The notes under the pieces were generated by a model. The model was not told where the DNA came from. It saw only the letters and a list, made by a program, of their open reading frames with translations, and ran no database searches. A program made the position numbers and the translations under genes. This document shows positions 4,660-23,118 of a stretch of 64,000 nucleotides of DNA, one piece after another (the stretch's first letter is position 1; each line of letters opens with the position of its first letter). Origin of the DNA: an uncultured Prolixibacteraceae bacterium (GTDB lineage: Bacteria; Bacteroidota; Bacteroidia; Bacteroidales; FEN-979); NCBI GenBank assembly GCA_964616825.1, contig CAZTSX010000010.1, positions 525-64,524 on the forward strand. Direction: 5' to 3'.

Positions 4660-4676
4660 TATGAATTATTATAACA

Positions 4677-7600
4677 TTATTCTTTCCGGAGTGTTTGGAT
4701 CAGATCCCTTTTAAAAAGGAGTTGGACCGGGATCAGGATCCACACCGCTCCGCTTATCCATATCATCCCCAGTACCACCACGAGAAATCCTCCCGGCATC
4801 TGGTAGGCCGGTGAGATCAGAGAGGGAAGTATTCCCGCTACCGCTCCGATAATTCCCAGGACCATCCCGGCGAGAAGAATCAGAAGATATTCGATCATCA
4901 GCATTTTGCGGATGAAGTTCTTTCGAAATCCAATAGCCATATAGAGCGCCAGCTCACTGGTTCGTTCGAGGTTGTTACGCCAGAGGATGATGCCAAAACC
5001 AACCGTTCCGATCAGCACACCCAGTGCACCGAGGAGCATGAAGACCGACAGATAGGTGTTCTCTACGGAGTTGAATTCAGCCAGGCGTTCGGAGGCCGGA
5101 ACTGCCACCAGTCCATAGTCCACAAACAGCTCTTCAAGCCGGTTTGTGATCTCCTTTCGATGGTCAAATGGCCCCTCCACCAGCATGATCCGGGTTCCAC
5201 TGATAGAGGGGAACCGGTTTTTTAACAAGCTGTCGGAAACCAGGATATGTCCCTGGAAAATGGAGTTCGCCAATCCTCCCATCAGTTTTACCTGCAATAC
5301 CCTGCCTGCTTCATCAAGGTACCGGAGGGTATCGCCAACCGTTTTCCGCAATCCCCAGGTAATGACCGACTGATCCGCGAAGGCCGGGATCACGCCTGGT
5401 GAAAGCTCCTGGCTAAGCGTCAGCCATGGATGTTCCGGGTCTACTTCAGGGAGGAGATTCTCAAAGTTGAATGCGCCCAATGTATCAAAATTTCTTCCCG
5501 GGATCCCCAGCATCATGGGTTGCGTAACCTGGTTCAGGTTCAGGCAGCTGGCGTCATTGCCATCCAGCCGGTGCAATTGAAGATACCGGAGATCCTGCAA
5601 CAGGAGCTCATCGTCCAGCGCAAAATAGGCTTTCCCTGAAGTGGTGTTCAGGTCGTACAACAGGGGTATCGTCGTTTCGGCCCACAGGAGAAAACCTCCT
5701 GTTCCAGATTGGCGGTCTCTCTCGGTTCCAAAGAATGTTTTTCGGTTGGCTCCGGTGATGATGACAGTAAATGTCCCCAGGGCTAATAAAGATATCGCAG
5801 CCATACTCCTTCCCCGCTTCATGGATCCGAGCCTTACTATCATGGGCAACAAACCTGTATGGCCGGTAACATGTCTCTTTGATCGCCAGACAAGGAACAC
5901 ATAAACAAGAGCGATCCCTCCGCCCATCATCAGTCCACCAGCAGTGAGGTATAAGCCGGCATCAGGGACCATTAAGTCTGCCAGCAAAACAACCAGCAGC
6001 ACAATGGAGATGATCACAAGCATGATCCCGGTTCCCATCCATGCCTTTTTTTTCCGCTGAAGCCTACGTCCGGGAAGTCGTGGCGTCTCCTTCACCAGGC
6101 CGGTAACAGGTCGCCGGAGTTGTCTTCTCAGGGTTAAAAAGAGAACACATCCCGCCAGAATAAATCCTACAGCAGCTCCGGCAGCCAGAGAGGGAAGATT
6201 CACCTCCATCCGGAGCATCGAGGTTCTCACAGCATCCTGCCATAGTGTGTTTAGCCCTAAGAGGATAAGCTTATTATATAGAATTCCTGCGATGGCTCCA
6301 AGGATCACACCCGGAATTGCCACCAGGAGGGCTTCGGAAAAGAGGATCCGCATGATCAGCCATTTCCGGAATCCGAGCCCGGCTAACACCCCTGTTTCCG
6401 ACATCCTTGCTCTGGCATGAAGAGAGAATAGCAGTGCTGTGAGCAGGAGGGAAGAGGCAAGGAGAAAAAAGCTGAGACTCAGGAAGAGGCCTCCGAAATC
6501 AGTGGAATTCGCAGCTGCCTGTTGTCCCTGTTCCCTGACATGCTGAAAGACAAACCGGTGCCAGGAGGGATTTATCGCTGTCATAATGAGGGAGTCAACG
6601 GATGCCTGATTCCGGATGCCGTTGCCACATTGCGCTCGCAATGACAATGATGCCGGATTAGAAATGAAGCGGAAGGCTGTGACCGTTCCGAATGGATTAT
6701 CCCAGAGTTTCTCCCCATCTTCCAGGGTGATGAACGCTTTCGGGGTTCCTTTGAATGTATTCCAGTAGGCTTCATCCTTATCACGGATCCGATCCAGGTT
6801 CACCGGCGCTCCTGTTTCCCAGTCCCTGCAGTTACCGGCGCCGCTCATACCGGGAAAATCGGGCATCATTGTTTTGCCATCCGGAATGGCCTGCAGGGGA
6901 ATGATACCGGAGACTGTGAATCCTGCCTCTATTTCATTCAATCTCCTCAGCGGGCCCATAACATAATAGGTCATGTATAGTGAGTCTCCCGGCCTGACAC
7001 CCAGATCGGTAGCGAGCCAGTCGGTGACCAAGATCTCTCCGGGTGATAATGGCATCGGTAAAATTCCTTCATCCACGGCTGCCACAAACGAATAGGGTGT
7101 CTCTTCCCCGTTGGAAGTAAGGGTGTTGGCCAGGTAGGTAAAGAGGGGCAGGGCATCTGGAAGAGCAGTCCGGATGGCATTGGCAGTGAGATCGTCGAAG
7201 AAGATCCTGTCTGTGGTTATCCGGGATAATCCGCTTTCATCAAGTAGATTAATCTTGATTCCGGCATCTGCCATCTGCCAGGTTGACTCAAGGGCTTGAT
7301 CCAGTTTGTCTGCTGTCAGTTCATCGTTCTCTTCTGCGGGTATCAGCAACAGATTGGCAGATCCCGGGAGGCCGACCCGGCCGGCGAGCTGATCCATCAA
7401 GACAAACGCATTGTAAGGAGCCCGTTGATTGCTTTTCAGGCTGAACCTTCCCATTACCTCATTTCCTGCAATAGCTATAACCGTTAGCCGGATGGATGCT
7501 GCAGGCGTTTCATCAGCCACGAATGGCGCATTTTGAGGCACATTTCCCGGTTGCGGCAGACGAATCAATAGGGGATCTCCTGGTTCAAGAGCCAGACGTG

Positions 7601-8015
7601 ATGCCACGTTTTCACTGATAATCACTTCGTTCGCCTTAGGCAGTACCGGAGATGCTTTCCATAAAGAGGAAAAGCTGTTGTCGACTCCCACCACCTGTAT
7701 ATCCTGTAATCGATTGCCTGTCATGACATTGACCCCAATACCTGTCAACTGCATTACCGGCACCACAGGTTGCTCCAGTTCACGGGAGAGGTCAGCAGAA
7801 AGCGCTGACCTGAAATAGCGATCGCCCGGTTGCATCGCCCATTGTGTATCGCCCAATCTCAGTTCGGCCAGTCTTCCCAACGAACCTCTCACCGAATCCC
7901 CTACCAGTAGAGCTCCGGTCAGCACCGCTGTACTGACTATCACCCCAGCCAAAATAGCCAGGTAGGGCCACCGGTAAAAAATTACATTCCGGAAGATCAG
8001 CTTACCAATACTCAT
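4677..8015 (-). CDS. Large ABC transporter permease, MacB/FtsX/LolE type with duplicated FtsX domains
   Basis: 1112 aa. N-terminal TM with ALLVGDSVRGSL, two clusters of TM helices with R..E.G.L.G.GF and E.ALY.AIGF motifs and large periplasmic loops; overlaps the ABC ATPase by 4 bp. Confidence 0.88.
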   Translation of the reverse strand: MSIGKLIFRNVIFYRWPYLAILAGVIVSTAVLTGALLVGDSVRGSLGRLAELRLGDTQWAMQPGDRYFRSALSADLSRELEQPVVPVMQLTGIGVNVMTGNRLQDIQVVGVDNSFSSLWKASPVLPKANEVIISENVASRLALEPGDPLLIRLPQPGNVPQNAPFVADETPAASIRLTVIAIAGNEVMGRFSLKSNQRAPYNAFVLMDQLAGRVGLPGSANLLLIPAEENDELTADKLDQALESTWQMADAGIKINLLDESGLSRITTDRIFFDDLTANAIRTALPDALPLFTYLANTLTSNGEETPYSFVAAVDEGILPMPLSPGEILVTDWLATDLGVRPGDSLYMTYYVMGPLRRLNEIEAGFTVSGIIPLQAIPDGKTMMPDFPGMSGAGNCRDWETGAPVNLDRIRDKDEAYWNTFKGTPKAFITLEDGEKLWDNPFGTVTAFRFISNPASLSLRAQCGNGIRNQASVDSLIMTAINPSWHRFVFQHVREQGQQAAANSTDFGGLFLSLSFFLLASSLLLTALLFSLHARARMSETGVLAGLGFRKWLIMRILFSEALLVAIPGVILGAIAGILYNKLILLGLNTLWQDAVRTSMLRMEVNLPSLAAGAAVGFILAGCVLFLTLRRQLRRPVTGLVKETPRLPGRRLQRKKKAWMGTGIMLVIISIVLLVVLLADLMVPDAGLYLTAGGLMMGGGIALVYVFLVWRSKRHVTGHTGLLPMIVRLGSMKRGRSMAAISLLALGTFTVIITGANRKTFFGTERDRQSGTGGFLLWAETTIPLLYDLNTTSGKAYFALDDELLLQDLRYLQLHRLDGNDASCLNLNQVTQPMMLGIPGRNFDTLGAFNFENLLPEVDPEHPWLTLSQELSPGVIPAFADQSVITWGLRKTVGDTLRYLDEAGRVLQVKLMGGLANSIFQGHILVSDSLLKNRFPSISGTRIMLVEGPFDHRKEITNRLEELFVDYGLVAVPASERLAEFNSVENTYLSVFMLLGALGVLIGTVGFGIILWRNNLERTSELALYMAIGFRKNFIRKMLMIEYLLILLAGMVLGIIGAVAGILPSLISPAYQMPGGFLVVVLGMIWISGAVWILIPVQLLFKRDLIQTLRKE

Positions 8016-8683
8016 GGTTGGTCAATTTTTTCGAGCCTGCCTGAGTGGAGTTTATAAATGACTTTCATTCGCCTGGCTATCTCCATCGAGTGGGTAACGA
8101 TTACCATCCCCATCTCCTCTTCTCTGTTTAATTCTCCAAGTAGTATCCCAAGGGAGGCGGTATTCACCTCATCTAGTGAACCTGTAGGTTCATCAGCCAG
8201 GAGGAGCCCCGGATTATTGATCAGGGCTCTCACTACAGCGGCACGCTGGCACTCACCTACTGACAGTTCGCCGGGAAGGTGTTTCACACGATCGTTCAAA
8301 CCAACTCTGTCAAGGAACTTGTAAGCTCTCTGTTCGGCCTTTTTCACGACAAGTTTATCCTTTACAGGAAGCACTGGAAGAAGAGTATTTTCCAGCAATG
8401 TAAGCTGGGGGAGCAGGTAATGAAGCTGAAACACAAAACCGATAAATTGATTCCTGATTCCGGCTAATTGATTATCATCCAGCTTGTCAACTGCTTTACC
8501 ATTAAGAATGACCCGTCCGGAGGTGGGGCGGTCAAGTGTTCCCAGGATATTCAGCAACGTACTTTTCCCGGATCCTGAGGGGCCGACGATCGCGATTGAA
8601 TCTCCACGATGAATGGTCAGGGAGATCTCTTTCAGTACGGGGTGATCGTATTGTTTGGATACGTTTTGAAACTCTGCCAGCAT
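8012..8683 (-). CDS. ABC transporter ATP-binding protein (LolD/MacB type)
   Basis: Walker A GPSGSGKS, Q-loop FVFQ, signature LSVGECQR, Walker B LLLADEPTG, H-loop VTH. Confidence 0.93.
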   Translation of the reverse strand: MLAEFQNVSKQYDHPVLKEISLTIHRGDSIAIVGPSGSGKSTLLNILGTLDRPTSGRVILNGKAVDKLDDNQLAGIRNQFIGFVFQLHYLLPQLTLLENTLLPVLPVKDKLVVKKAEQRAYKFLDRVGLNDRVKHLPGELSVGECQRAAVVRALINNPGLLLADEPTGSLDEVNTASLGILLGELNREEEMGMVIVTHSMEIARRMKVIYKLHSGRLEKIDQP

Positions 8684-8687
8684 AATA

Positions 8688-9983
8688 TTATTGTTTTTTG
8701 TTCAGGATCTGTTGATATATTTCTACCATCTTCCGGGTGAGGTTCCTACAATTAAACTGCCTTCTAACAGCTTTGATTCCTTCAGTACTCATCTGCTCAA
8801 TTTGTTCAGCAGAACCCAGCACATCTGAAAGTTTTGCTGCCAGGGCAGAAGAGGTATTTGGCCGGTAAACCACGCCACCGCCGGTGGCTTCTATGATCTC
8901 AGGAAATGCACCCAATGCAGGTTGAACCAGGGGAACTCCCGAGGCCAGTGCTTCGAGCTGGTAGAGCCCGAATGCTTCTCCTTTCAGCACCGGAACAGAC
9001 AGCAGTGTGATCTTCCGGAAAAAGTCGCTGAGTTGGTCCTGCCGAAAATCATGCATGATCTCCACCTGGCCGGAGAGATTAGCTTGCTTCAGTTTCTGCA
9101 TCTGCTTGTTGATAAAGGGCTTGTCGTCACCAGTCATCCCCCCGGTAGCATAGAGTCGCAATGGGGCAAACGAATTATTCTGTTTCAATTCAATAAATGC
9201 ATCGATGAGCAATTCAAATCCATTCTCTTCATTCATCCGGGAAAGATATCCGATGGCAGGAGGATCGGTGGCCAGCCGGGTAGGCTCATAGGCATCGGCA
9301 TTTACACCAATATAGACAACATGGAGTTTTTCATCTGGGATCTTCATCCGTTGCTGCATCACCCCTGCATAAAAGTGGCTGACTGCAATAAATCCATCCA
9401 CATCCTCTCCTTTCTGAGCCATCAACTCCCAGATACGTTTCCGGAACGATTCATGCATGGCATCCACCCAAACATCTTCATCCTGCAGAGAGAAAATCAC
9501 CGGAGTTTTCACCTCTTCCTTGATTCGTTTCGCTAATCCAAGAAGCAATGCATTCGAAAGATGCACTACGTCGGGTTTTTCCTTTTTGAGAAAGTCAACC
9601 AGCTCTTCAAGTTCTTGGTGTTGGTTTCCTTCACTTCCCAAAAGCATCGATTCGGTCATCTCCTCGAGTCCTGTTGCCCTCGTAGAACCTGCTTTGTGCG
9701 CTGCATAGCTGAGTATGGCTTTGGAGTTCAGGAACCGTTCCATAAATCCCGGCATGCTTCTTAACCAGGGATAGTTCTGCTTCAGGTAAAGGATTACTGC
9801 GCCGTAAAAAACCGGGACTTCGTCAGGTTTGGTTTGTCCGTTCAACGTTAATGGCAGGTACATAGGAACTGTGAGTGCATCGTGCCCCTCATTGCGAAGG
9901 GATTGCACCAGGGCACTGTCGCGAAGGCAATTCCCGCAATAAAATGTTCCTCCAAAACCCGGTACGATCTGGATAATTTTCAT
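8688..9983 (-). CDS. Glycosyltransferase family 4 (GT-B) with N-terminal CxxC
   Basis: EAFGLYQLEALASG (EX7E) motif and GT-B layout. Start placed at MKIIQIVPG (9983), giving an ATGA overlap with the upstream gene; the ORF-track extension to 10085 overlaps that gene. Confidence 0.85.
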   Translation of the reverse strand: MKIIQIVPGFGGTFYCGNCLRDSALVQSLRNEGHDALTVPMYLPLTLNGQTKPDEVPVFYGAVILYLKQNYPWLRSMPGFMERFLNSKAILSYAAHKAGSTRATGLEEMTESMLLGSEGNQHQELEELVDFLKKEKPDVVHLSNALLLGLAKRIKEEVKTPVIFSLQDEDVWVDAMHESFRKRIWELMAQKGEDVDGFIAVSHFYAGVMQQRMKIPDEKLHVVYIGVNADAYEPTRLATDPPAIGYLSRMNEENGFELLIDAFIELKQNNSFAPLRLYATGGMTGDDKPFINKQMQKLKQANLSGQVEIMHDFRQDQLSDFFRKITLLSVPVLKGEAFGLYQLEALASGVPLVQPALGAFPEIIEATGGGVVYRPNTSSALAAKLSDVLGSAEQIEQMSTEGIKAVRRQFNCRNLTRKMVEIYQQILNKKQ

Positions 9984-11158
9984 GGTCCGAATGCATATAA
10001 AGTTCCATCGTGTGCTCCTACGAGGATCATCCCGGAGGTAACTGCCGGTGTTGCTGTGATCTGGCTTCCGATTTCGTAAACCCAAACCTTTTTTCCACTA
10101 TCTAATTCCAGCAGGTGGAGCCTGCCATCGGAGGAGGCAACTACCACCAGGTTTTCGGCAATGACCGGAGAGGCATCTACTTTTCCCAACGCTTTGTATT
10201 TCCAGAGCAGCTCTCCTGTCTCAGCCTGGTAACAAAAGAGGTACCGGTTCTGGGATCCGATCACTACCCGATCCCCCTGAATAGCCGGTGAGGAGAGAAA
10301 AGGACCTCCTCCTCCCGTTTTCCATTGTATCTTTTTTTGTTTCAGGTCGGCACAATAGAACTCTCCGTCGTAGTTTCCAAACCAGGCTTTATCTCCGCGG
10401 GTCGCTGCCGATGAGGCGATGTAGGTTCCCAGGTCAATCGTGTCATCTGCCATTCCTGTTATCGTGTTTACCAGGTGCAGGTATCCGTCACAACCACCAA
10501 AAACAGCTATCTCCCCGCTGATGGCAGCTGCTCCGTTTATGAAGTTGTTTGATTCGTATTTCCACAATTCCGCCCCTGTGGTGGCATCTACCGCATGGAG
10601 GTTATAATCATAGCTCCCGGTCAATATCTCTTTCCGTTTTTTGTCGGCCGACCATGCCCAGTTGGAGGAGCCCGATATTTGCCCCTCTGTGGTGTATTTC
10701 CATTTTCGTTTTCCCGATTCAGCATCCAGGGCCCATAGGACACCTTCGAGTGTCCCTACGTAAATAGTCTGATCCAGATAGAGTGGAGCCGCTTCCACAG
10801 ATGTTCCCGCGTTGAATTGCCATTGCAACTTTCCATTAAGAGAGAGGGCATAGATAAATCCGTCGTCGGATCCAAAACAGATCAGTCCATCGCAAATCAC
10901 CGGGGAGGATTTGATGGCGCTATTGGCATGAAAGGTCCACAGAAGTTTCAGTGGTGGTTGTATCGAAACCGGCGACGTACCAGTAAGCTGTGGATCTCCC
11001 CTGAACGAAGGCCAACAGTCCGCGTTTTTGGTCTGAGCGAGACCTGCTCCGGCTGCGATAATATTCAGTAATAAAACACAGACTTGTACCGCAAAGGCGC
11101 TAAGCCGTAGAGCACGCCAATTATACCAAAAATTAACTGTTATTTCGTTTAATCTCAT
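9980..11158 (-). CDS. PQQ-binding-like (BamB-type) beta-propeller protein, exported
   Basis: Signal-like N-terminus, WPSFRG motif, repeated G...W docking repeats and SSP motifs. Start uncertain (ATG 11158 chosen; the ORF-track GTG at 11185 lies in a repeat array). Confidence 0.8.
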   Translation of the reverse strand: MRLNEITVNFWYNWRALRLSAFAVQVCVLLLNIIAAGAGLAQTKNADCWPSFRGDPQLTGTSPVSIQPPLKLLWTFHANSAIKSSPVICDGLICFGSDDGFIYALSLNGKLQWQFNAGTSVEAAPLYLDQTIYVGTLEGVLWALDAESGKRKWKYTTEGQISGSSNWAWSADKKRKEILTGSYDYNLHAVDATTGAELWKYESNNFINGAAAISGEIAVFGGCDGYLHLVNTITGMADDTIDLGTYIASSAATRGDKAWFGNYDGEFYCADLKQKKIQWKTGGGGPFLSSPAIQGDRVVIGSQNRYLFCYQAETGELLWKYKALGKVDASPVIAENLVVVASSDGRLHLLELDSGKKVWVYEIGSQITATPAVTSGMILVGAHDGTLYAFGP

Positions 11159-11181
11159 CACATTATTCCTTAATACAATAC

Positions 11182-11248
11182 TCACTTATTCACCATTTCA
11201 CCACCTCACCATTACTCACCAACTCACCAGTTCACCAGTTCACTAGTT
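11182..11248. repeat. Imperfect 8-bp tandem array (TCACCA core) containing the stop codon of the upstream Fe-S flavoprotein gene
   Basis: TCACCA-type cores at 11182, 11190, 11198, 11206, 11216, 11224, 11232 and 11240; TGG TGA at the end of 11224..12801 is one unit. Confidence 0.85.
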
Positions 11249-12801
11249 CTATCTGCCAACGCCCCGGTGGGACATCCCTCCACACAAGACTGCGCTGTTT
11301 TAACCAATCCTTCCTGCATGGTTTTACTGAAAGGCACTGTGATCCTTACGTCAAAACCTCTGCCAATATAAGCCAACCCCAATGTTTCTCCATCTTTTTG
11401 CGTGATCTCCACACACAATCCGCACCGGATACATTTTTCTGGCTCGTAGACCACCAGGTCATGTTGCAGGTTCCTTGTCAGCTGATTCCTTTCTGCTGCA
11501 TCAAACCGTCTCTTGTTAACCCCGTATTGATCGGAAAATCTCCTCAACTTACAACTTACCGGCTTGCGGCAGTCGCAATGCATGCACCGCTGGGCTTCTC
11601 GGATTGCCTCATCCTGAGTAAATCCGGTCAGGTATCCCGACCCGGGATCGGTTCTTTCCTCAAAAGAAGCCTCCTGCATATACTCTTTGTTCTCTTCCTC
11701 TTTTAGCGGGCCGATGGATGAATTGAACATCGGCGTTCTACGAGGGATTGTTTCCCCTGAAAGATAGGCATCAGCCTCGAGTGCAGCTTTTTTTCCCTGG
11801 GCTACCGATCTTACGGATAGCAGCTGTTCGGAGATGATGCTGCCACAACCAAACACACCCGGCTTGCCTGAAGCAAAACTTTTTTTATGGATGACCGATT
11901 CATATTCCAAAATCGGCAAGTCAAATTCATCTACGGGGTGCTCCTCGCTAAATCCGGTTGCCAGGATCACCGCATCGAACCCGGGGAGGATCTCCTTATC
12001 CCACTTCTTCCCGGTAACCGGATAGTTAAGCTGAAACTCGCCTCCAAGTGCGCGAATGGATTCGATATCGGCATCGAGCATTTCTTTGGGAAGAAGATCA
12101 TCAGGGATACGATAACGCAGCGCTCCTCCGGCCTGTTCGTTTTTATCAAAAAGCGTACAGGCGTGACCTTGCTGAAGAGTATAAAACGCCGCTGCCAGTC
12201 CGGCCGGACCGGTACCGATCACAGCTACCTGTTTTCCGCTTTTTTCTGAGACCACCTCCAGGCCGGTTTTCCGAATGGCTTCATCCTGTGCTGTATATCG
12301 TTTCAACAGACAGATCGAGACCGGCTCATCAACCTTTTTCCTGCGGCAGGCTTTTTCGCAGGGGGCCGGACAGATATATCCGAGTATCAGAGGGAGAGCG
12401 ATCTCTTCCCTGACTACCCGAAGCGCTTCTTCATTCCTGTTAGCGGTAATCAATCTGTTCATCAGGGGTATGTTCATGAAGGCCGGGCACGAGATACGGC
12501 AAGGGGCCTCGCAATCCCCAACATGATCGCTTAGGAGCAGCTCCAGAGCCTCTTTCCGTGCTTCCATCACCTCTTTGGCAGATGCTGAAAGATTCATTCC
12601 GTCTGCGACAGGCATAGCGCAGGAGGGGAACAGTGTGCCACGATCAAGATCCTTAACCAGGCATACCATGCAAGAGGGGTGGTTGGAGTGGCCCGGCAGG
12701 TAACAGAGAGAGGGAATTTCGATTCCCTTCAGTGCCGCAGCCTGCATGACGGTCATGCCCTGCTCCACTTCTATAGCTGTATGGTCAATCGTGATGTGCA
12801 T
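11224..12801 (-). CDS. Fe-S flavoprotein, StnC/NfnA/SfrB-like: 2Fe-2S domain, GltD-type Fe-S/FAD module and HydA/NuoG-type 4Fe-4S region; NAD(P)H domain apparently absent
   Basis: 2Fe-2S motif SLC..PSCMVC..PSC; GltD-type CEAPCRISCP and ICPAPCEKACRR; FAD motif IGTGPAG; CMHCDC..SC and CIRCGLC...CPTGAL. No second GGGxxA Rossmann motif. Confidence 0.82.
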   Translation of the reverse strand: MHITIDHTAIEVEQGMTVMQAAALKGIEIPSLCYLPGHSNHPSCMVCLVKDLDRGTLFPSCAMPVADGMNLSASAKEVMEARKEALELLLSDHVGDCEAPCRISCPAFMNIPLMNRLITANRNEEALRVVREEIALPLILGYICPAPCEKACRRKKVDEPVSICLLKRYTAQDEAIRKTGLEVVSEKSGKQVAVIGTGPAGLAAAFYTLQQGHACTLFDKNEQAGGALRYRIPDDLLPKEMLDADIESIRALGGEFQLNYPVTGKKWDKEILPGFDAVILATGFSEEHPVDEFDLPILEYESVIHKKSFASGKPGVFGCGSIISEQLLSVRSVAQGKKAALEADAYLSGETIPRRTPMFNSSIGPLKEEENKEYMQEASFEERTDPGSGYLTGFTQDEAIREAQRCMHCDCRKPVSCKLRRFSDQYGVNKRRFDAAERNQLTRNLQHDLVVYEPEKCIRCGLCVEITQKDGETLGLAYIGRGFDVRITVPFSKTMQEGLVKTAQSCVEGCPTGALADRTSELVNW

Positions 12802-12804
12802 GGG

Positions 12805-15162
12805 TTAACTGATCATAATCGCATCTTCCGGACATGCCTGGCGGCAGATGTCGCACTTGATACATTTTTCCTTATCGATAACATGTTTTTCAAAAGGTGT
12901 GTATTCGATTGCTTCCGATGGACAACGCTGGGCGCATTTGGTGCAACCGATACATTCGTCAGTAACAGAATAGCTGATCAACGGTGCACATTTTCCGGCG
13001 GGGCACTTACCCTGAAGATGAGCTTCATACTCTTCCCTGAAATAGGTCAGTGTCGATAACACGGGATTAGGGGCCGATTTGCCCAATCCGCATAAGCTGC
13101 CTCTTTTGGTGGATCCCGCCAGGTGTTCCAGGTTGTCGAGATCTTCAGGGACACCTTTTCCATTTCGGATCTTCTCCAGTAATTCCAGCATTCGTCTCGT
13201 TCCAATCCGGCAAAAGGTACATCTTCCACACGACTGGCTCTGGGTGAAGGATAAAAAATAGTAAGCGATATCCACCATACAGTCATCTTCTTCCAACACA
13301 ACCATTCCGCCCGATCCCATCATCGATCCAACTTCAATGAGGGCTTCGAAATCAACCGTCAGATCGGCCAGAGAGGCTGGGATACAACCTCCCGAGGGTC
13401 CTCCGATCTGCACTGCTTTGAAACTTTTCCCTTTAGCAATCCCGCCGCCAATCTCTTCGACAATCTGCCGGATGCTCATTCCCATCGGAACCTCGATTAA
13501 ACCGCCTCTGTTTATCTTGCCGGCCAGGGCAAAAACCTTGGTCCCTTTGCTATTATTTATTCCAATACGTGCAAATGCTTCCGCTCCATGCCGGATGATC
13601 CAGGATATGAACGCGAAGGTCTCCGTGTTGTTCACAAGCGTTGGCTTGCCGTTTAATCCTTTCAGGGCCGGATAGGGTGGCCTGATACGTGGCTGGCCAC
13701 GATTCCCTTCCACTGAAGCGATAAGAGCTGTCTCTTCCCCGCAAACAAACGCTCCGGCTCCCTCAAAAATCCGGATATGAAACGAGAAGCCGCTTCCCAG
13801 GATATTCTCTCCCAGGAATCCGGCATCAGAACATTTGGTGAGTGCTTCTTTCACCCGGCTCACAGCTAACGGGTATTCAGCCCGGATATAGAAGATCCCT
13901 TCTGTAGCTCCTGTTGCGAATCCCGCAACAGTCATCCCTTCGATGACGCGGTAGGGATAAGATTCCAGGATCATCCGGTCCATAAATGCGCCCGGATCTC
14001 CTTCGTCACCATTGCAAATGATTAATTTTGAGGAATCCTCCTGGTCTTTCACCAGCTGCCACTTCCTCCCTGTAGGGAATCCGGCGCCACCGCGACCACG
14101 AAGACCACTCGCAGAGATCACATCGATTACATCCTGCGGAGAAAGTTCCTTCAAACATCCGGACAGCGCTTCAAATCCTCCCGATCGCTTGTATTCTTCA
14201 AGGTCTGTTGGGCGTATTACTCCCCTGTTCTCTGTAGCAATATTCATTTGAGGACCAAGAAATTCTTCCACCGGAGTGCCACGTTCTTCAGCCTGGTATC
14301 GCCTGACCGATAGTGGAGATCCATCGTTAAGGATCTGCTCAAATAGTCCGATCACATCTAACTTCATCCGGTGAATGAGCCCTTCCGGTCTGAAATGGTT
14401 CAAGACTACCTCCTTCACCTCTTCAGGTTTGATCTTTGCATAATAAGCTACCGGCTCCCCGGATTTGACCACCTCCAGGACCGGTACCTGGTGACAGATC
14501 CCCACGCATCCTACCTGCTTCACCTCCACGTGGATACGGGCATCAGCCAGTGTCTTCTCCAGTTCTGATTTCACCTCTGAACTGCCACTGGCAATACAGC
14601 AGGATCCCAATCCGATCCGGATCTCACCCTGACCATTTGGCTCAGCCTGTTCTATGGGCAAATCATCCAATTTCCGGTTGGCTTTGTGAAGCAGGAAGTC
14701 CTGAAGGATCCCGCCTGCTTTTTCCGGTACCACCTGTCCGTAAGTGACCGAATCGATCCGTATCACGGGAGCAATGGTGCAACAACCCAGGCAGGCGACT
14801 TTGCTGATAGTAAAGAGACCCTGGCTATCGGTATCTTCCAATCCTGTAAGGTTCAACTCCCGGCGGAAAGCATCATAAACCTTTGAAGCTCCTTTCATAT
14901 GACAGGCTGTACCGGTACACACTTTGATGCTGTGCTTTCCGGCAGGCTGATGCCGGAACTGCCCGTAAAAAGTGGAGATGCCGGTGATACGTGAAGGGGT
15001 GATTTCAGTGGTGGCACATACCTTCTCAAGGGCCTCCTCAGGAAGGTAATTGAACTCTTCCTGGATCGCCTGTAAAATCGGGACTACCGCATCCACAGTT
15101 TTCCCGTGAACATCGACAATTCTCTCGACAATCTCGTTTATTTTATGTTCGGTTTCCGGCAC
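12805..15162 (-). CDS. NuoE-NuoF (HydC-HydB) fusion, NADH-binding FMN/Fe-S subunit of the electron-bifurcating type
   Basis: NuoE 2Fe-2S motif CTGTAC..CLGCC; thioredoxin-like Fe-S domain SCC..CVGIC; FMN motifs SGLRGRGGAGFPTG, NGDEGDPGAFMDR, GAGAFVCGEETAL; SCGRCTFC..LCGLG; H..CPAGKC; C-terminal 2x4Fe-4S. Confidence 0.9.
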   Translation of the reverse strand: MPETEHKINEIVERIVDVHGKTVDAVVPILQAIQEEFNYLPEEALEKVCATTEITPSRITGISTFYGQFRHQPAGKHSIKVCTGTACHMKGASKVYDAFRRELNLTGLEDTDSQGLFTISKVACLGCCTIAPVIRIDSVTYGQVVPEKAGGILQDFLLHKANRKLDDLPIEQAEPNGQGEIRIGLGSCCIASGSSEVKSELEKTLADARIHVEVKQVGCVGICHQVPVLEVVKSGEPVAYYAKIKPEEVKEVVLNHFRPEGLIHRMKLDVIGLFEQILNDGSPLSVRRYQAEERGTPVEEFLGPQMNIATENRGVIRPTDLEEYKRSGGFEALSGCLKELSPQDVIDVISASGLRGRGGAGFPTGRKWQLVKDQEDSSKLIICNGDEGDPGAFMDRMILESYPYRVIEGMTVAGFATGATEGIFYIRAEYPLAVSRVKEALTKCSDAGFLGENILGSGFSFHIRIFEGAGAFVCGEETALIASVEGNRGQPRIRPPYPALKGLNGKPTLVNNTETFAFISWIIRHGAEAFARIGINNSKGTKVFALAGKINRGGLIEVPMGMSIRQIVEEIGGGIAKGKSFKAVQIGGPSGGCIPASLADLTVDFEALIEVGSMMGSGGMVVLEEDDCMVDIAYYFLSFTQSQSCGRCTFCRIGTRRMLELLEKIRNGKGVPEDLDNLEHLAGSTKRGSLCGLGKSAPNPVLSTLTYFREEYEAHLQGKCPAGKCAPLISYSVTDECIGCTKCAQRCPSEAIEYTPFEKHVIDKEKCIKCDICRQACPEDAIMIS

Positions 15163-15239: not shown

Positions 15240-17069
15240 CTATTTCCCAATACAATACAAGTTATTATCTCCTCTGATATAAATTTTTCCACCGGCAAAC
15301 GCAGGTGTGCAAACAGATCCTTCTCCCAGTGGCGACTGCCCAACCGAGATAAAAACGCTGTCGGATTTGAATATATGCATGATTCCTTCTTTATCCATTT
15401 GATAGATCTTATCATACACCAATACAGGTGAGGCATATGTGCTGTTATCCAGTTCGTGGACCCAATACTCTTCTCCGGTTTTGGCATCGTAACAGACGAT
15501 CACGCCATAACTGGTAACCAGGAAGAGGTAGTTCTCATTCGCCACCGGGCTGGGGATATCAGAGAGGTAATCATTGAGCTCCCAGTCAACCTGAGGAGGA
15601 TTCCCTAATTTGATGGCAACCAGTTTAGCATATTCATTGGTGGCAAACAGATAGCCATTTGCATAAGCTGCTGAAGGTCCTACCTCTCCATAAATGCAAT
15701 CGATCTGCCAGCGTTCTTTTCCTGTAGCGGGATCATACGAAGCTACTATCGGGTCGGCTACAAGGATGAGCTCTGTTTGATTGCCGGTATTAACCAGGAT
15801 GGGTGAAGCCCATGATACCCGTACAGGTCGGGGGGTATTCCAGGCCAGTTCGCCCGTAGCACCGTCAAACGCTTTTACACTCGCGCCCTGTGATTGGTCC
15901 CATTGTACAATTATCAGGTTGCGGTACATGATGAGAGAGGAGGAGTGTCCGTAGTGATTCTTCGGTATGCCCAGGTTCTTTGACCATACCAGATTTCCTT
16001 CCAGATCCAGCGCCACCAGATCGCCGGTAGCGAAAATTGCATAAACACGACGACCATCGGTAGTCAGGGTTGGAGCAGCCAAACCCGTTTCCCCGTCTAC
16101 TTTCGGAACAGCTGCTGGTGTTCCCGGCACGGCAGAGACATCTGTCTGCCACAGGATCTTCCCTGAATTAGCATCAAAGCAATATATATCTCTTTTCGTA
16201 TCACTAGCCCCGGAAAGGAATACCCGGTCATTCCAGACAATCGGTGAATTATACCCGGGTAGGGGAACTTCAGTTTTCCATTTGATATTTGATCCGGTGG
16301 TACCGTTCCAGTTCACTGGAAAATTCTTCATGTTTACTACTCCGTTTCCATCAGGACCACGAAATGTCAACGCATTGTTGAGGATCTCCCGCCTCGAAGG
16401 AAATGACCTGGCTGGAGCTGACTTTACTGTTTCAGTGGAATCGGGATTCCCGGTTATGGCCGTTGTGGTGATCAGGCTGTCGGGTTCACTTTCAGGGATC
16501 GTTTCCGGGATAACTGGTTGGTTTGTTATCTTTTCCATCGAATCGACTTCCGCATGTGATATGGCTGTTTGATCACGAAGTGTTTTTCCGATCTCAGTGT
16601 AGGTGAGGTATGCCAGAATGAGAGAGCCAGCCACCAGAAATATCCCGGTATAGATGATCCATCGCTGGTTGGTTTTCCTGTGTTCCCAAAACCGATCTCT
16701 GACCGGTTCGGGAAGAGGCGGGATCTTCGGCCGGATCAGTTCGATCCATTTCATACAGATGATGATGATCAACACACATGCCAGGAGAATATATCCCCCC
16801 GTGCGGATCTGCCACCGACTGGTAAAGAACGCCTTGCGTGAAAGCAGATCGAGTTCGCGGATCTCGTTCCGGAGCGCTTCATCACCGGGGTTGCTCTTCA
16901 ACTTTTCCAGCATAATCGTCATCGCCGGTGTATTGAGCGGATCAACCCGTGTTACCTGGATGAAATTAGCAATGATCAGGATACACAGAATAAAAGCCAC
17001 GATCCCGCTGATGAGAGCGATTCGTCTCAGCAGTTGCATCGTCTGTTCTTTTGATGTCTCGTTTTCCAT
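15240..17069 (-). CDS. Membrane-anchored PQQ-binding-like beta-propeller protein
   Basis: Two N-terminal TM segments, Pro/Thr-rich linker, FRGPDG motif, W-docking repeats, YNSP/WASP/YASP motifs. Confidence 0.82.
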   Translation of the reverse strand: MENETSKEQTMQLLRRIALISGIVAFILCILIIANFIQVTRVDPLNTPAMTIMLEKLKSNPGDEALRNEIRELDLLSRKAFFTSRWQIRTGGYILLACVLIIIICMKWIELIRPKIPPLPEPVRDRFWEHRKTNQRWIIYTGIFLVAGSLILAYLTYTEIGKTLRDQTAISHAEVDSMEKITNQPVIPETIPESEPDSLITTTAITGNPDSTETVKSAPARSFPSRREILNNALTFRGPDGNGVVNMKNFPVNWNGTTGSNIKWKTEVPLPGYNSPIVWNDRVFLSGASDTKRDIYCFDANSGKILWQTDVSAVPGTPAAVPKVDGETGLAAPTLTTDGRRVYAIFATGDLVALDLEGNLVWSKNLGIPKNHYGHSSSLIMYRNLIIVQWDQSQGASVKAFDGATGELAWNTPRPVRVSWASPILVNTGNQTELILVADPIVASYDPATGKERWQIDCIYGEVGPSAAYANGYLFATNEYAKLVAIKLGNPPQVDWELNDYLSDIPSPVANENYLFLVTSYGVIVCYDAKTGEEYWVHELDNSTYASPVLVYDKIYQMDKEGIMHIFKSDSVFISVGQSPLGEGSVCTPAFAGGKIYIRGDNNLYCIGK

Positions 17070-17086: not shown

Positions 17087-18349
17087 TCATGATTTTATCG
17101 GACAATAATCAACACACCGGGCACAACTGAAGCAGGTACCCCGGTTGGGTTCAAAATCGGTTCGGTATCTGGTGATCAGGCGGCCAGCAAGCAATCCGCC
17201 AATGGTCAGCCCGATAAAACCTCCCAGGATCCACCCTCCGATGTAAAACTGACGGAGGATCCGTGATGCTTCATTATACAGTTCCTCTACCGACTTCCCG
17301 GAAGCTTTAAAGGCGGTCATCTCAATCGATTCAGGTTCTCCCTGTGTTTTTTCAGGGTGCAATAATTCATCTGCCATACGAACTTTTCCATTTACTTTAG
17401 CTAATGATTCATGAATCTGTGAGCCGGTCCATCCCCCAAGCAGCATGAAAAATGGGATCAGCAGCATGATCAGGATAAACTTTCTGACGACCGTTTTCCG
17501 GTTTTCCGGGTTCTTCACTGTGACCGGTTTTTCGATCGATTCGTAGGGACAGGAGTCTTCGCACAACCGGCATTCGACACAAATCGATGGAGTGATCGTC
17601 ATGTGGTATTTCGAAAAGCGGCTGATCCAGTTCAGCAATACGCCATAAGGGCATAGGAATCGACAGTATGGCCGGGCAATGAAGACCCCGCAAAGAAGCA
17701 ATATTCCACCGAAGATGAACATGCTAAAAAGAGCATCAAATCGAAAAATCCCTACAAATGGATCGTATCGGCAGATGATGAAGTCGGTTGCGGTAGCTGC
17801 ATATAACACAGCCAGTCCAAGGTAGATGTAAGGGATTACACCAAGCACAGCATTCAACCGGGTTCCAATTTTTTGAGGGCGCCAGGAGACGAGGTCCTGA
17901 AACGCTCCGAATGGACAAACACCCGCACAAAATGTTCTTCCAAAGAGAAGTGTATAGACCAGGGGTGCCAGGAAGAAAACGAGAACCGTCCACGGAATCA
18001 CATATGAACCGGCGAAGATAGCCAGGGCCACATTCTGGATGGATCCAATCGAACAGACACATCCTTCCCGGTAAAATCCGAAATAGGCCAGGGAGAAGAT
18101 AGAGATCCAGAAGACCATGTTGCGGGATCGACGTTTCAACACAGCCCAGGTAACCACAGAGAGTGCCAGCAACAGAATAGCTACATCCATCACCTCCAGG
18201 ATCTCTGCACGTGGAGTAGGGAGGAGTGTTTCGGGTGTAATGTATCCCGATTCAAATTCCGGTTTTGGAAATCGCTGGATCGCATAGGAGGAGACCATTT
18301 GCCAGGCAAACAGGATGGTCAGAACAACTAATGCAATCCCTTTTTTCAT
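17087..18349 (-). CDS. Membrane-bound 4Fe-4S-binding protein (NapH/MauN/RdxA/NosR-C-like)
   Basis: Multiple TM helices; GRTFCAGVCPFG and RPYCRFLCPYG (CxxxCP pairs); CVECRLCEDSCP and C-terminal CFSCARCVDYCP ferredoxin motifs. Confidence 0.85.
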   Translation of the reverse strand: MKKGIALVVLTILFAWQMVSSYAIQRFPKPEFESGYITPETLLPTPRAEILEVMDVAILLLALSVVTWAVLKRRSRNMVFWISIFSLAYFGFYREGCVCSIGSIQNVALAIFAGSYVIPWTVLVFFLAPLVYTLLFGRTFCAGVCPFGAFQDLVSWRPQKIGTRLNAVLGVIPYIYLGLAVLYAATATDFIICRYDPFVGIFRFDALFSMFIFGGILLLCGVFIARPYCRFLCPYGVLLNWISRFSKYHMTITPSICVECRLCEDSCPYESIEKPVTVKNPENRKTVVRKFILIMLLIPFFMLLGGWTGSQIHESLAKVNGKVRMADELLHPEKTQGEPESIEMTAFKASGKSVEELYNEASRILRQFYIGGWILGGFIGLTIGGLLAGRLITRYRTDFEPNRGTCFSCARCVDYCPIKS

Positions 18350-18364
18350 GCCGGATTAATCCTC

Positions 18365-18952
18365 CTATTTGATGTCTAAGTTTTTCTGTCCGAATCCCTT
18401 CAGAAGGTATGGTTGATCTGCCGGTATCCGCGAATATGCTTCTGACGGACAGTTGCGGGCAACGGAACATTCGTTGCAGTTGTCACACCTGTCTTGCCTT
18501 ACCTGCAGCTGTAGTGAGCCATTTCCGAAGGCACCACATCCTTTAACGCATTTTCCGCATCCGATACAGATCTCCTCATCAATTGTATATTCAAAAAATG
18601 GATCCTCAATAAATGTGCGTTTGATTGCTTTAGTTGGACAAAGCTGGTTTTCAGCCCCTGTATTGAGTGTTTTGGTATCAGGGAGGAAATAGCCACCACA
18701 GAGATCACAATAACCGCACATAGCATAGACATGGACACATTTAACCGCCGATGGAGTCTTGATGCAGCTGGTGGCACAACGGCCACACTGGGTGCATTTG
18801 GTGGGATCAAGCTGCCAGACATATTCACTGGATCCTGCTTTCTTTGCTGCCAGTACTGCAATTCCGCCGATGCTGATCAGCAATCCGGCCTGAGCTCCGG
18901 TTTGGAAGAATTTGCGCCGGTTGATCCGTTTCTCCTCTCCCTTGCCATCCAT
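18365..18952 (-). CDS. Tat-exported polyferredoxin (NapG/MauM/NrfC-like, about four 4Fe-4S)
   Basis: NRRKFF twin-arginine motif plus hydrophobic stretch; CTQCGRCATSC, CGYCDLC, LCP, CIGCGKCVKGC, CDNCNEC..CP. Start placed at ATG 18952, just after the upstream stop. Confidence 0.82.
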   Translation of the reverse strand: MDGKGEEKRINRRKFFQTGAQAGLLISIGGIAVLAAKKAGSSEYVWQLDPTKCTQCGRCATSCIKTPSAVKCVHVYAMCGYCDLCGGYFLPDTKTLNTGAENQLCPTKAIKRTFIEDPFFEYTIDEEICIGCGKCVKGCGAFGNGSLQLQVRQDRCDNCNECSVARNCPSEAYSRIPADQPYLLKGFGQKNLDIK

Positions 18953-18953
18953 A

Positions 18954-19199
18954 TTATTGAGTCTCCTGTTTTTGTTGTTCATATTTCCGGTAAGATTTGG
19001 CTGCCGGTAATCCACATTGTTCTGTTTTCCCACAGAGGGTACATGTAAAGTCAAGGGTACATGCCTCCGCAGGTTCTTCTTTTAAAAGCAGGTATCCGCC
19101 CGTGACAGCTAATCCGGTTCCAATGGCTCCCCGCATCAGCAGGGAGAAGAACTTACGCCTGGATTGCTTCACACCCTTATTACCTGGTCTATCTTTCAT
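18954..19199 (-). CDS. Small twin-arginine, Cys4 protein (C-x5-C-x2-C-x5-C)
   Basis: 81 aa; SRRKFF plus TM helix, then CTLDFTCTLCGKTEQC; fills the gap between two operon genes exactly. Confidence 0.72.
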   Translation of the reverse strand: MKDRPGNKGVKQSRRKFFSLLMRGAIGTGLAVTGGYLLLKEEPAEACTLDFTCTLCGKTEQCGLPAAKSYRKYEQQKQETQ

Positions 19200-20175
19200 T
19201 GCTATCCTCTCCTTTTTTAATGAAAATCCTGATTTGATTCCGCCAGGGGTCGAGGACCAGGATCCTCTCCTCTGAATCTACTGCCAGGTCAAGTCCTCTC
19301 GTTCCCTGGTCAAACTGATCGGGTGCAGCTACCAGGCATTTGAACTCTCCCGATGGATGAAAGACTTTCACATGTTCAATTCCCTTTTCACTGGTTACGA
19401 ACGAACCATCAGAAAGCATGGCAAAATTTGAGGGATTACAACATCCGCAAAAGCCTTCCACTCCCGTGGAGGTCTCACCCCAGGTGGAGATCAATGAGCC
19501 ATCGGGACGGAATGCCTCAAACAGGTGTCGTCCGGAGTTGACCACCCACAGTTCGTCATCGCGGCCGATTCCCAGGTCAAAATATGGACTGGGGATCACA
19601 AATCTAGGAATCCCTTTCAGGGAATCCTTTTTTCCGATCAGGTTCAGTAATGTCCCATCACGGTCATAGTGGTAAACAATCTTTTTGCCGGCATCGGCGA
19701 CAAAGATATCGGTTCCGTTTGTGGCTATACTGGTCAGAACAGATGCATCACTCTCCGGTTTCCACCGGTTGATGATCTCTCCTTCCGGATTCATGATCTC
19801 AATGTGGTCAATCATACCCAGCAGGAGGTTCCCATTCGGCGCAACCGCAATACAATATGCTGTATCAGGAAAAGGGAGTTCCGATATTTTCTCTCCGTCA
19901 TGGCTATAGATCTCTACTCCGTTTGCACCAGCTACATAGATCCGATTATCAGTATCTGCGGCTATCCCGTAGATCTCTGATAATCCGGCTGGAAAATGCT
20001 TTATTTCGCGGTATTCGATAAGCGATGTATCACTTTTCCGAAGTTCATTCAATCCTAAATCAAATGGATTATCGCTGGCACCTGATTCAGAGTAAAAGAG
20101 ATCAACCACCAGGTATCCGATTCCTGCTATCAGGAGGATCAGGGCGGTAATAATGATTAATCGTTGTTTCATCAT
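19189..20175 (-). CDS. NHL-repeat beta-propeller protein, membrane-anchored or exported
   Basis: N-terminal hydrophobic anchor; NHL-like repeats (GIAAD, IFVADAG, LAVDSEERILVLDP..QIRIF); FCGCCNP motif. Start at MMKQRL (20175) gives an ATGA overlap. Confidence 0.8.
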   Translation of the reverse strand: MMKQRLIIITALILLIAGIGYLVVDLFYSESGASDNPFDLGLNELRKSDTSLIEYREIKHFPAGLSEIYGIAADTDNRIYVAGANGVEIYSHDGEKISELPFPDTAYCIAVAPNGNLLLGMIDHIEIMNPEGEIINRWKPESDASVLTSIATNGTDIFVADAGKKIVYHYDRDGTLLNLIGKKDSLKGIPRFVIPSPYFDLGIGRDDELWVVNSGRHLFEAFRPDGSLISTWGETSTGVEGFCGCCNPSNFAMLSDGSFVTSEKGIEHVKVFHPSGEFKCLVAAPDQFDQGTRGLDLAVDSEERILVLDPWRNQIRIFIKKGEDSNER

Positions 20176-21608: not shown

Positions 21609-21612
21609 CTCG

Positions 21613-21620
21613 CAAAGATA
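21613..21620 (-). promoter_or_regulatory. Bacteroidota sigma-A -7 element (TATCTTTG) upstream of the 21608 gene
   Basis: The reverse complement of 21613-21620 matches TAnnTTTG, in the only sizeable gap (about 200 bp) in the cluster. Confidence 0.55.
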
Positions 21621-21812
21621 ACTGCTTTTGCTTAGTTTTCTTTGATATTATAGGCCATTAGTGTATCGCCATCAATTAAAAACGATTCTGAAAATCCATA
21701 AAATACCTGGCTTCCGTGAAGGTCTTCAAGCATATCCAATGACCATACTATCTCCCTGTTGCCGGCATGAAAACAGGTAATTTTCCCGGGCCCTGTCCTA
21801 GCCAACTTTTCA

Positions 21813-23111: not shown

Positions 23112-23118
23112 CGATGAG

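Follow-up and report, generated by a model that had tools for sequence, protein, structure and literature searches.

A 525-residue flavoprotein subunit of the NfnA/StnC type, referred to below as the short BfuA, is encoded at 11,224-12,801 on the minus strand of the window analysed here, a stretch of 64,000 nucleotides from an uncultured Prolixibacteraceae bacterium (contig CAZTSX010000010.1, assembly GCA_964616825.1), and it carries neither the NADP(H)-binding domain nor the Fdh-like domain of its solved relatives. Based on sequence comparison, we propose with a probability of about 0.55 that this protein belongs to a Bfu-type module that is blind to NADP(H) and is wired to a membrane and periplasmic partner. 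First, the protein aligns to its relatives in two blocks with the NADPH domain missing between them, the length of the insert at this point is bimodal, and the short form recurs in hundreds of species. Second, the Fe-S ligands and the ADP-binding motif for flavin adenine dinucleotide (FAD) are kept, and conservation is as high in the flavin domain as in the Fe-S domains. Third, the ligands of a cluster on an orphaned branch have decayed while those leading towards the flavin have not, which provides an internal control. Fourth, the adjoining NuoE-NuoF fusion matches NfnB, StnB and HydB, including their N- and C-terminal cluster domains, and the gene order is retained across phyla.

The cofactor motifs of the short BfuA comprise one [2Fe-2S], four [4Fe-4S] and one FAD-type site, all on the minus strand as given here. 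The N-terminal [2Fe-2S] domain (residues 1-80, nucleotides 12,562-12,801; Pfam Fer2_4 at 2-72) has the ligands C33, C44, C47 and C61 and corresponds to cluster A1 of NfnA. It is followed by an NfnL/GltD-type helical domain (residues 93-175, 12,277-12,525; Fer4_20 at 96-174) with two [4Fe-4S] sites equivalent to A6 and A7, for which the candidate ligands are H93, C97, C101 and C152 at the first site and C105, C144 and C148 with K167 or C164 at the other. The first half of the FAD-type Rossmann domain (residues 190-284, 11,950-12,234) holds GTGPAG (G196, G198, G201), D219 and G225-G226 and ends in ILATG283, and the return strands with the second half (residues 285-350, 11,752-11,949) include F293-G/D294-L, GVFGCGS (315-321) and a helix at 329-348. 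The C-terminal NuoG-like Fe-S region (residues 396-516, 11,254-11,616; Fer4_Nqo3 at 449-515) contributes the ligand sets C406/C409/C411/C417 and C457/C460/C463/C510.

The NADP(H) Rossmann domain of this protein is absent, not merely divergent. When the protein was compared by phmmer with all PDB chains, the three best matches were Csac NfnA (9bov_A, 7e-85), Sporomusa ovata StnC (8oh5_C, 4e-81) and Thermococcus sibiricus NfnA (9n5u_A, 3e-73), and the alignment fell into two blocks, with residues 2-284 matching StnC 6-286 and Csac NfnA 5-287, and residues 304-516 matching StnC 453-674 and Csac NfnA 455-672; 19 residues of the short protein stand opposite 165-167 residues of these solved chains. 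A Foldseek search with the AlphaFold2 model again placed Csac NfnA, StnC and T. sibiricus NfnA as the top three, with about 680 alignment columns for the 525-residue query. The junction lies between residues 284 and 285 (11,949-11,952, minus strand), where about 130-165 residues of NADP(H) domain sit in relatives, and it reads FDAVILATG(283) followed directly by FSEEHPVDEFDL...GKPGVFGCGS. The initial annotation, made from the sequence alone, had described a StnC/NfnA-like protein with a clean deletion of this domain near 11,952, and the PDB matches, the two-block alignment and the position of residue 284 (11,950-11,952) bear out all three statements. Pfam finds a single dinucleotide-binding Rossmann start, at residues 191-284, and the pattern G.G..[AG] occurs only once, at residue 196, so that the second glycine motif is missing.

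The same picture was obtained from closer relatives. In a MAFFT alignment with ten homologues of 645-711 residues, the short forms pass from 'ATG' directly to the return strands '..G(L/I)....G-I.VD..T..T...GVFA.G', whereas the long forms carry 122-145 extra residues at this point, including a second glycine-rich Rossmann motif, and residues 285-350 of the short BfuA align with the long-form segment located after the NADPH domain. Among 151 sequences (50%-identity representatives of at least 470 residues plus four family members), the insert measures 0-55 residues, with a mode of 19, in about 140 short forms and 141-164 residues in 10 clusters, with none between. A present but divergent domain, which the initial annotation had named as the outcome that would contradict it, is therefore not what the alignment reveals. 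A supply of the domain in trans, or as a remnant, was also considered and rejected, since the ten long-form NADPH domains, run by tblastn against the 64-kb window, gave no match (best E 0.26). From this we infer that the short BfuA cannot use NADP(H) in the canonical way. Additionally, its last residue (525) corresponds to about residue 675 of the 1172-1178-residue NfnA/StnC chains, and the Fdh-like domain, some 500 residues more, is gone.

The deletion is shared by a large family. A word-index search listed 120 relatives at 55-100% identity, 507-573 residues long except for three (489, 494 and 573 residues; partial or slightly extended), and a 100%-identical cluster was found on 19 contigs. 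In a scan of one genome per GTDB species, at least 574 relatives were confirmed, each in a different species, and in all 80 of the loci retained the short form is a contiguous protein of about 503-588 residues. The main hosts are Bacteroidales and Marinilabiliales, among them the cultured Labilibaculum euxinus, Marinifilum flexuosum, Maribellus luteus, Maribellus mangrovi and Draconibacterium sp., and further hosts belong to Acidobacteriota/Aminicenantes, Latescibacterota, KSB1, Victivallales and Pirellulales. An HMMER search of 1.84 billion representatives likewise returned short forms in about 135 of the best 150 50%-identity clusters. A pseudogene, an assembly artefact or a strain-specific deletion, the other outcome that would have undone the initial annotation, is excluded, because the reading frame is intact, the identical cluster stands on 19 contigs, the same architecture recurs in these species including cultured isolates, and purifying selection is evident on all cofactor motifs.

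Ligand conservation was scored across 82 orthologs, with the window's own clade represented by 55 sequences and a wider set by 141 short and 10 long forms. The four [2Fe-2S] cysteines are invariant in both the clade (55/55) and the orthologs (82/82), and so, in all 82 orthologs, are H93, C97, C101, C105, C144, C148, C152 and C164 in the helical domain, C406, C409, C411 and C417, and C457, C460, C463 and C510 with its following proline; K167 is kept in 81. By the phmmer alignment, C105, C144, C148 and K167 correspond to C108, C147, C151 and K170 of Csac NfnA, which hold cluster A7, the neighbour of the FAD, with K170 as a lysine ligand (PMC11829005). In that enzyme the electron path runs FAD-A7-A6-A3-A2-A1-B1, and A4-A5 form a dead-end branch into the Fdh-like domain (PMC11829005). 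All main-path sites of NfnA are retained in the short BfuA, and the side branch alone is gone.

At the C-terminus, the initial annotation had recognised only one complete cluster motif, CxxCxxC (C457, C460, C463) with C510-P, and a degenerate second ferredoxin cluster. Both motifs are as it described, and the word 'only' does not hold, as C406/C409/C411/C417 is complete as well. The second ferredoxin cluster of StnC has been lost through C656 to V500, C659 to A503 and replacement of the fourth cysteine of its first motif by T467. The long forms resembling PRK12814 share this loss, and it therefore tracks the absence of the Fdh-like domain and not the deletion of the NADPH domain.

Three further observations concern individual residues. 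Cys164 (12,307-12,312 together with Lys167) stands three residues ahead of Lys167, and either one may ligate the A7-type cluster; in Sporomusa Stn, a lysine-to-cysteine change abolished activity, as that work is cited in PMC11829005. A role for Cys164 as a ligand specific to short forms was rejected, given its presence in 5 of 10 long forms and in just 73 of 141 short representatives. An extra metal or cluster site formed by the clade-specific Cys215, Cys319 and Cys506 was rejected too, V, I, G or A being found there in wider sampling, which marks these as positions for hydrophobic or small residues.

The nucleotide-binding half of the flavin site is conserved in a similar way. Among the 141 short forms, the ADP-binding motif for FAD is kept at G196 (141), G198 (139), G201 (141), D/E219 (137), G225 (138) and G226 (136), and the mean column identity of the flavin domain is 0.58-0.61 against 0.60-0.75 for the cluster domains, with a variable segment at residues 285-303 (0.33). 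The AlphaFold2 model, built from 55 family members with a mean predicted local distance difference test score of 71.5, reaches 82-97 across nearly the whole flavin domain. The surroundings of the isoalloxazine end differ between the two forms. StnC R239 lies near the flavin N5 and is required for NADPH-driven activity (PMC10482914); its equivalent, position 236 of the short BfuA, is arginine in 10/10 long forms but in 36/141 short forms, and the neighbouring proline (P233) is present in 10/10 against 33/141. In the window's own clade the flavin-side loop is nonetheless kept, with I232 in 52, L237 in 54 and P238 in all 55 sequences. The relaxed N5-proximal arginine in short forms fits a loss of hydride chemistry at the flavin, and we consider from these motifs that the short BfuA probably still binds a flavin whose hydride-transfer surroundings are no longer under the same constraint.

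A protein that has lost its flavin, with a Rossmann remnant that is empty or holds another nucleotide as a regulator and with the clusters acting as a pure Fe-S relay, is very unlikely. The loss of the N5-proximal arginine would suit such a relay, and so would the replacement of the usual aspartate of GVFAGGD, to which the initial annotation had drawn attention: the position is S321 here and N or S in 78/82 relatives. The GxGxxG motif, the acidic residue at the end of the second beta-strand and the GG motif are, however, essentially invariant, and the long forms, presumed FAD binders, have E, A, N or D at the same position. The substitution is therefore real but not diagnostic, because proteins that still bear the NADPH domain vary there too.

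The gene immediately upstream encodes a NuoE-NuoF fusion of 785 residues (12,805-15,162, minus strand), a fused BfuC and BfuB, whose stop codon lies 3 nt ahead of the ATG of the short BfuA. In order, it consists of a NuoE-like [2Fe-2S] domain, a second thioredoxin-like 2Fe-2S domain, the domain for flavin mononucleotide (FMN) and NADH, an N3-type [4Fe-4S] region and a C-terminal 2x[4Fe-4S] domain. The BfuC part is recognised at residues 13-155 (2Fe-2S_thioredx/NuoE), and the BfuB part, a NuoF-like FMN/NADH domain with the N3-type cluster B1, by the Pfam matches Complex1_51K (1e-42) and NADH_4Fe-4S (2e-31). The thioredoxin-like cluster domain and the C-terminal 2x[4Fe-4S] domain (B3/B4) are absent from non-bifurcating NuoF. 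Both of these Bfu-specific additions are found in the fusion, as a second 2Fe-2S_thioredx stretch and as Fer4_21 at residues 735-783. Among PDB chains, T. sibiricus NfnB (9n5u_B, E 4e-206) ranks first, aligned over residues 181-784, followed by Csac NfnB, StnB and bifurcating HydB proteins, while NuoF of complex I covers only about residues 317-717; the protein is therefore best regarded as the fused BfuC-BfuB core of the Nfn-type clade. As judged from these comparisons, the short BfuA and the fusion display the sequence-level features of the wider Bfu family.

The fusion adjoins the ortholog of the short BfuA in 72/74 loci. One divergent locus (L087, 434-2820; P0178, 36% identity) has no fusion: NuoE (405 residues) and NuoF (393 residues) are encoded by two genes, and the membrane propeller is retained upstream, as is the PQQ401-like gene downstream.

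The pair lies in a cluster of about 15 genes, whose products were searched by tblastn against 83 loci. The same-strand order is nearly fixed: one or more propellers, a propeller, an NHL propeller, a small Tat peptide in some cases, a Tat polyferredoxin, a NapH-like protein, a membrane propeller, NuoEF, the short BfuA, a propeller, a GT4 glycosyltransferase, an ATP-binding cassette (ABC) ATPase and a large FtsX permease. This synteny extends across Bacteroidota, Acidobacteriota, Latescibacterota, KSB1, Victivallales and Pirellulales, and the cluster includes six periplasmic beta-propellers. The NapH-like protein, the Tat polyferredoxin and the membrane propeller were each detected in 57/60 loci, and the propeller downstream of the short BfuA in 60/63. 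The initial annotation had named a membrane Fe-S protein as a possible electron acceptor of the flavoprotein, and the conserved NapH-like neighbour agrees with it as far as the gene is concerned.

Based on these findings, we propose that the NuoE-NuoF fusion would oxidise NADH at its FMN, possibly together with ferredoxin at its C-terminal clusters, and that the short BfuA would pass single electrons through A1, the two NuoG-type clusters, A6 and A7 to the flavin and on to a non-nucleotide protein partner. The most likely partner would be the NapH-like membrane Fe-S protein, which could exchange electrons with the Tat-exported, NapG-like polyferredoxin and the periplasmic propellers, in this direction or in reverse. 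The fullest form of this proposal is that a NapGH-like transmembrane Fe-S conduit, serving cofactor-less propeller and NHL proteins of the periplasm, is the third partner of a Bfu-type NADH/ferredoxin module, and that the truncated flavin end of BfuA docks on a protein partner; we put it forward tentatively, as a possibility short of even odds.

Several observations weigh against the NADP(H)-blind, membrane-wired module. Long forms of 645-675 residues that bear the NADPH domain occupy the same type of gene cluster: a 675-residue protein at 4288-6315 of locus L090 (order membrane propeller, NuoEF, BfuA, GT4), another of 675 residues at 1073-3100 of L088 (NuoEF, BfuA, GT4) and one of 662 residues at 431-2419 of L089 (NuoEF, BfuA, PQQ401-like propeller). 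The association with the membrane module is therefore either older than the deletion or unrelated to it, and the case for the exposed flavin face as a docking site is weakened; the membrane partner probably does not need that face, and docking could be elsewhere. Flavin binding is itself deduced from motifs, confidence is low in the C-terminal third of the AlphaFold2 model, and the NapH-like protein scores 52 bits against a NapH cut-off of 213 bits. Two orphan short copies (L025, 9980-11,560; L065, 9989-11,536) stand without a NuoEF, NapH-like or propeller neighbour. Finally, conserved ligands are no proof of electron flow, because the clusters of the StnC dead end are retained for the sake of assembly (PMC10482914).

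This last point leads to an alternative in which the FAD/A7/A6 arm is a vestigial branch and a structural dead end, like A4-A5 of NfnA, left behind after NADPH use became dispensable. The C-terminal 2x[4Fe-4S] domain of the NuoF part, where Bfu enzymes meet ferredoxin, would then be the exit for the electrons of NADH, with either the NapH-like protein or ferredoxin as the acceptor, and BfuA would be kept solely for folding and assembly or as an electron reservoir. The history of the long forms is consistent with such a course, as the glycine motif at the canonical position of the NADPH domain is degenerate in 4/10 of them (GGDAEA, GPLETG, AAGSPG and GLDAAA), which suggests that NADPH use was becoming dispensable in this system, with the arm idle and the domain decaying before its excision. 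The relaxed flavin-side positions P233 and R236 in the short forms point the same way, and so do the conserved dead-end clusters with an assembly role in StnC (PMC10482914) and in Csac NfnA (PMC11829005) and a 1133-residue protein (P0129, a single representative) in which a complete NfnB/GltD-like module with an NADPH domain, and a ferredoxin, are joined to a short form, the module being attached C-terminally and not at the remnant flavin domain. However, neither the ADP-binding motif nor the A6/A7 ligands vary across about 140 divergent clusters, whereas the ligands of the orphaned A4-like cluster have disappeared, and the flavin-side loop is kept in the window's own clade. We regard a vestigial arm as rather doubtful, though as the foremost of the alternatives.

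Retention of the FAD motif at the end of an intact wire would also be expected if the exposed flavin were open to a soluble partner or a small molecule (ferredoxin, flavodoxin, quinone, O2 or peroxide, a disulfide, or NAD(P)H without a dedicated domain) as the third substrate of a still-bifurcating enzyme. The Bfu family does swap third substrates through changes in BfuA (PMC9304861), and the orphan copies and fusions place the short module in other contexts, for example P0145 (951 residues), a single representative in which it is fused to a URO-D-like domain. The cluster has, though, no conserved gene for a candidate soluble partner, and the residues surrounding the flavin are not conserved over the whole short family, so that a soluble third substrate is unlikely. 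A further fusion, P0127 (867 residues), links a short BfuA to a PQQ401-like propeller through a hydrophobic signal-like segment; this fusion has one representative and may reflect artefactual read-through. Monophyly of the short forms was not upheld by a midpoint-rooted neighbour-joining tree, in which the ten long forms fell in one clade of 14 nested among short forms, the sample being biased towards the query.

The comparison with known systems indicates that the short BfuA descends from NfnA and StnC and would work like them. With the NfnA of Csac NfnABC (9bov_A), the StnC of S. ovata StnABC (8oh5_C) and the NfnA of T. sibiricus (9n5u_A/9n5v_A) it shares the [2Fe-2S] N-terminus, the NfnL/GltD-type domain, in which the sites of two [4Fe-4S] clusters and the place of the A7-ligating lysine are preserved, the motifs and the modelled fold of an FAD-type Rossmann domain, the CxxCxCx5C and CxxCxxC...CP clusters, and adjacency to partner genes of the NfnB/NfnC type. 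It differs from them in lacking the NADP(H) domain of about 130-165 residues, the second ferredoxin-type cluster, and the Fdh/NuoG-like C-terminal domain of 300-500 residues with its two clusters, in the non-conserved equivalent of StnC R239, in the union of BfuB and BfuC in one protein, and in a membrane and periplasmic gene context instead of a soluble three-gene operon. In NfnA and StnC, the Fdh/NuoG-like domain mediates tetramer formation. NfnB/NfnL of NfnAB(SL), GltD and the N-terminal half of dihydropyrimidine dehydrogenase likewise share the two-cluster helical domain and the FAD-type domain; they are defined by two dinucleotide-binding domains and use NAD(P)H, whereas the short BfuA has one such domain and extra [2Fe-2S] and NuoG-type cluster domains.

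Another related family is PRK12814, labelled 'putative NADPH-dependent glutamate synthase small subunit'. Its model, NF009454 (657 positions), is the top NCBIfam hit and is matched in two pieces with 388 bits, under the cut-off of 916 bits, and the score against TIGR01317 (glutamate synthase small subunit) is 132.5 bits, under 447.7. Proteins of this kind (645-711 residues; for example P0170, P0226 and P0245) have the same domain order and 36-41% identity to the short BfuA, lack the Fdh-like domain and the second ferredoxin cluster as it does, and stand beside NuoEF fusions in the same cluster type, with a membrane propeller, a PQQ401-like propeller and GT4. They differ in keeping an NADPH domain of 122-145 residues, with the degenerate glycine motif noted above in 4/10, and the N5-proximal arginine in all ten. 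Because the NADP(H) and Fdh-like domains are missing and the scores stay under the PRK12814 and GltD cut-offs, we do not file the short BfuA as a subunit of an Nfn/Stn transhydrogenase.

Such proteins are currently annotated as 'NADPH-dependent glutamate synthase beta subunit-like oxidoreductase', and in a 2022 census of the Bfu family, the clade 53 BfuB subunits assigned to Nfn include some from Bacteroidetes. As they have no NADPH domain, the short-form proteins are not canonical transhydrogenases. The short form would be a natural minimal BfuA, the main electron wire alone, which could help to dissect Bfu mechanisms. Its constant association with a NapGH-like module and with six propellers of the periplasm suggests an uncharacterised connection between cytoplasmic NADH, and perhaps ferredoxin, and the cell envelope in anaerobic Bacteroidota and several other phyla; if the conduit proposal is true, this would be a previously unrecognised envelope redox system of several phyla, present in cultured Marinilabiliales. 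Searches of the literature for an NfnA without its NADPH domain, and for a linkage of Bfu proteins to NapH, found no description of either, and as the searchable literature is incomplete, novelty is provisional.

The remaining genes of the cluster are described here in order from the short BfuA, all on the minus strand; all these neighbours score far under the cut-offs of named families, and the CxxCH haem motif was looked for in the cluster proteins and not found. Upstream of the fusion lies a membrane-anchored PQQ_2/BamB-like beta-propeller of 609 residues (15,240-17,069) with three N-terminal hydrophobic helices, whose gene overlaps that of NuoEF by 4 nt in locus L001. The best solved match of this propeller is the tetrathionate hydrolase of Acidithiobacillus (6l8a, E 7e-9), a cofactor-less propeller enzyme, which gives a weak hint of sulfur-compound chemistry. 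The NapH/NosR-like integral membrane protein (420 residues, 17,087-18,349) has two CX3CP motifs (C141/C145, C229/C233) and two CxxCxxCxxxCP motifs, with the motif cysteines kept in at least 90% of 60 orthologs, and the NapG-like polyferredoxin (18,365-19,054; true start probably near 18,952) has a Tat signal (RRKFF) and 16 conserved cysteines, which would suffice for four [4Fe-4S] clusters. What the pair shares with the NapGH/NosGH quinol-dehydrogenase modules and NosR is a membrane protein bearing two CX3CP motifs and, on the cytoplasmic side, two CxxCxxCxxxCP motifs, together with a Tat-exported 16-cysteine polyferredoxin; the present pair differs in scoring far under the NapH cut-off, in having neither Nap or Nos catalytic genes nor cytochromes in the cluster, and in its genomic tie to cytoplasmic NuoEF and BfuA.

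Further upstream, an open reading frame of 81 residues (18,954-19,199) with a twin-arginine motif (SRRKFF) and four conserved cysteines (C47, C53, C56, C62) ends at the probable start of the polyferredoxin and was detected in just 5 other loci, possibly owing to its shortness. The NHL-repeat propeller (19,189-20,256) is anchored N-terminally and has only weak matches, to TRIM-type NHL domains and ScyF. It contains a CGCC motif (residues 270-273), of which the pair Cys272-Cys273 is kept in at least 90% of 56 orthologs and could serve as a vicinal redox pair or bind a metal. Three PQQ_2/BamB-like propeller genes follow within 20,172-24,336 (20,172-21,608, 21,813-23,138 and 23,119-24,336), and several of these propellers show weak matches to 'acido-empty-quinoprotein group A'.

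Directly downstream of the short BfuA are a PQQ_2/BamB-like propeller with a signal-like N-terminus (9980-11,185) and then the conserved genes for the GT4 glycosyltransferase (8688-10,085), the ABC ATPase (8012-8683) and a duplicated FtsX/MacB-type permease of 1112 residues (4677-8015), which weakly matches an 'ADOP family duplicated permease' model. The ADOP permease and acido-empty-quinoprotein families were first named from Acidobacteria. A scan for promoters and terminators, whose coverage does not extend to Bacteroidota promoters, gave counts equal to shuffled expectation (28 against 25.7 and 19 against 18.7). Among the two orphan copies, that in L025 has an alpha/beta-hydrolase and a histidine kinase as neighbours, and that in L065 a superoxide dismutase, a Fic protein and a TonB receptor. 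Convergent with the cluster in the window, a gene on the plus strand (448-4659) encodes a protein of 1403 residues in which two ATPase stretches of the BadF/BadG/BcrA/BcrD type are combined with a DUF2229 'CoA enzyme activase' domain.

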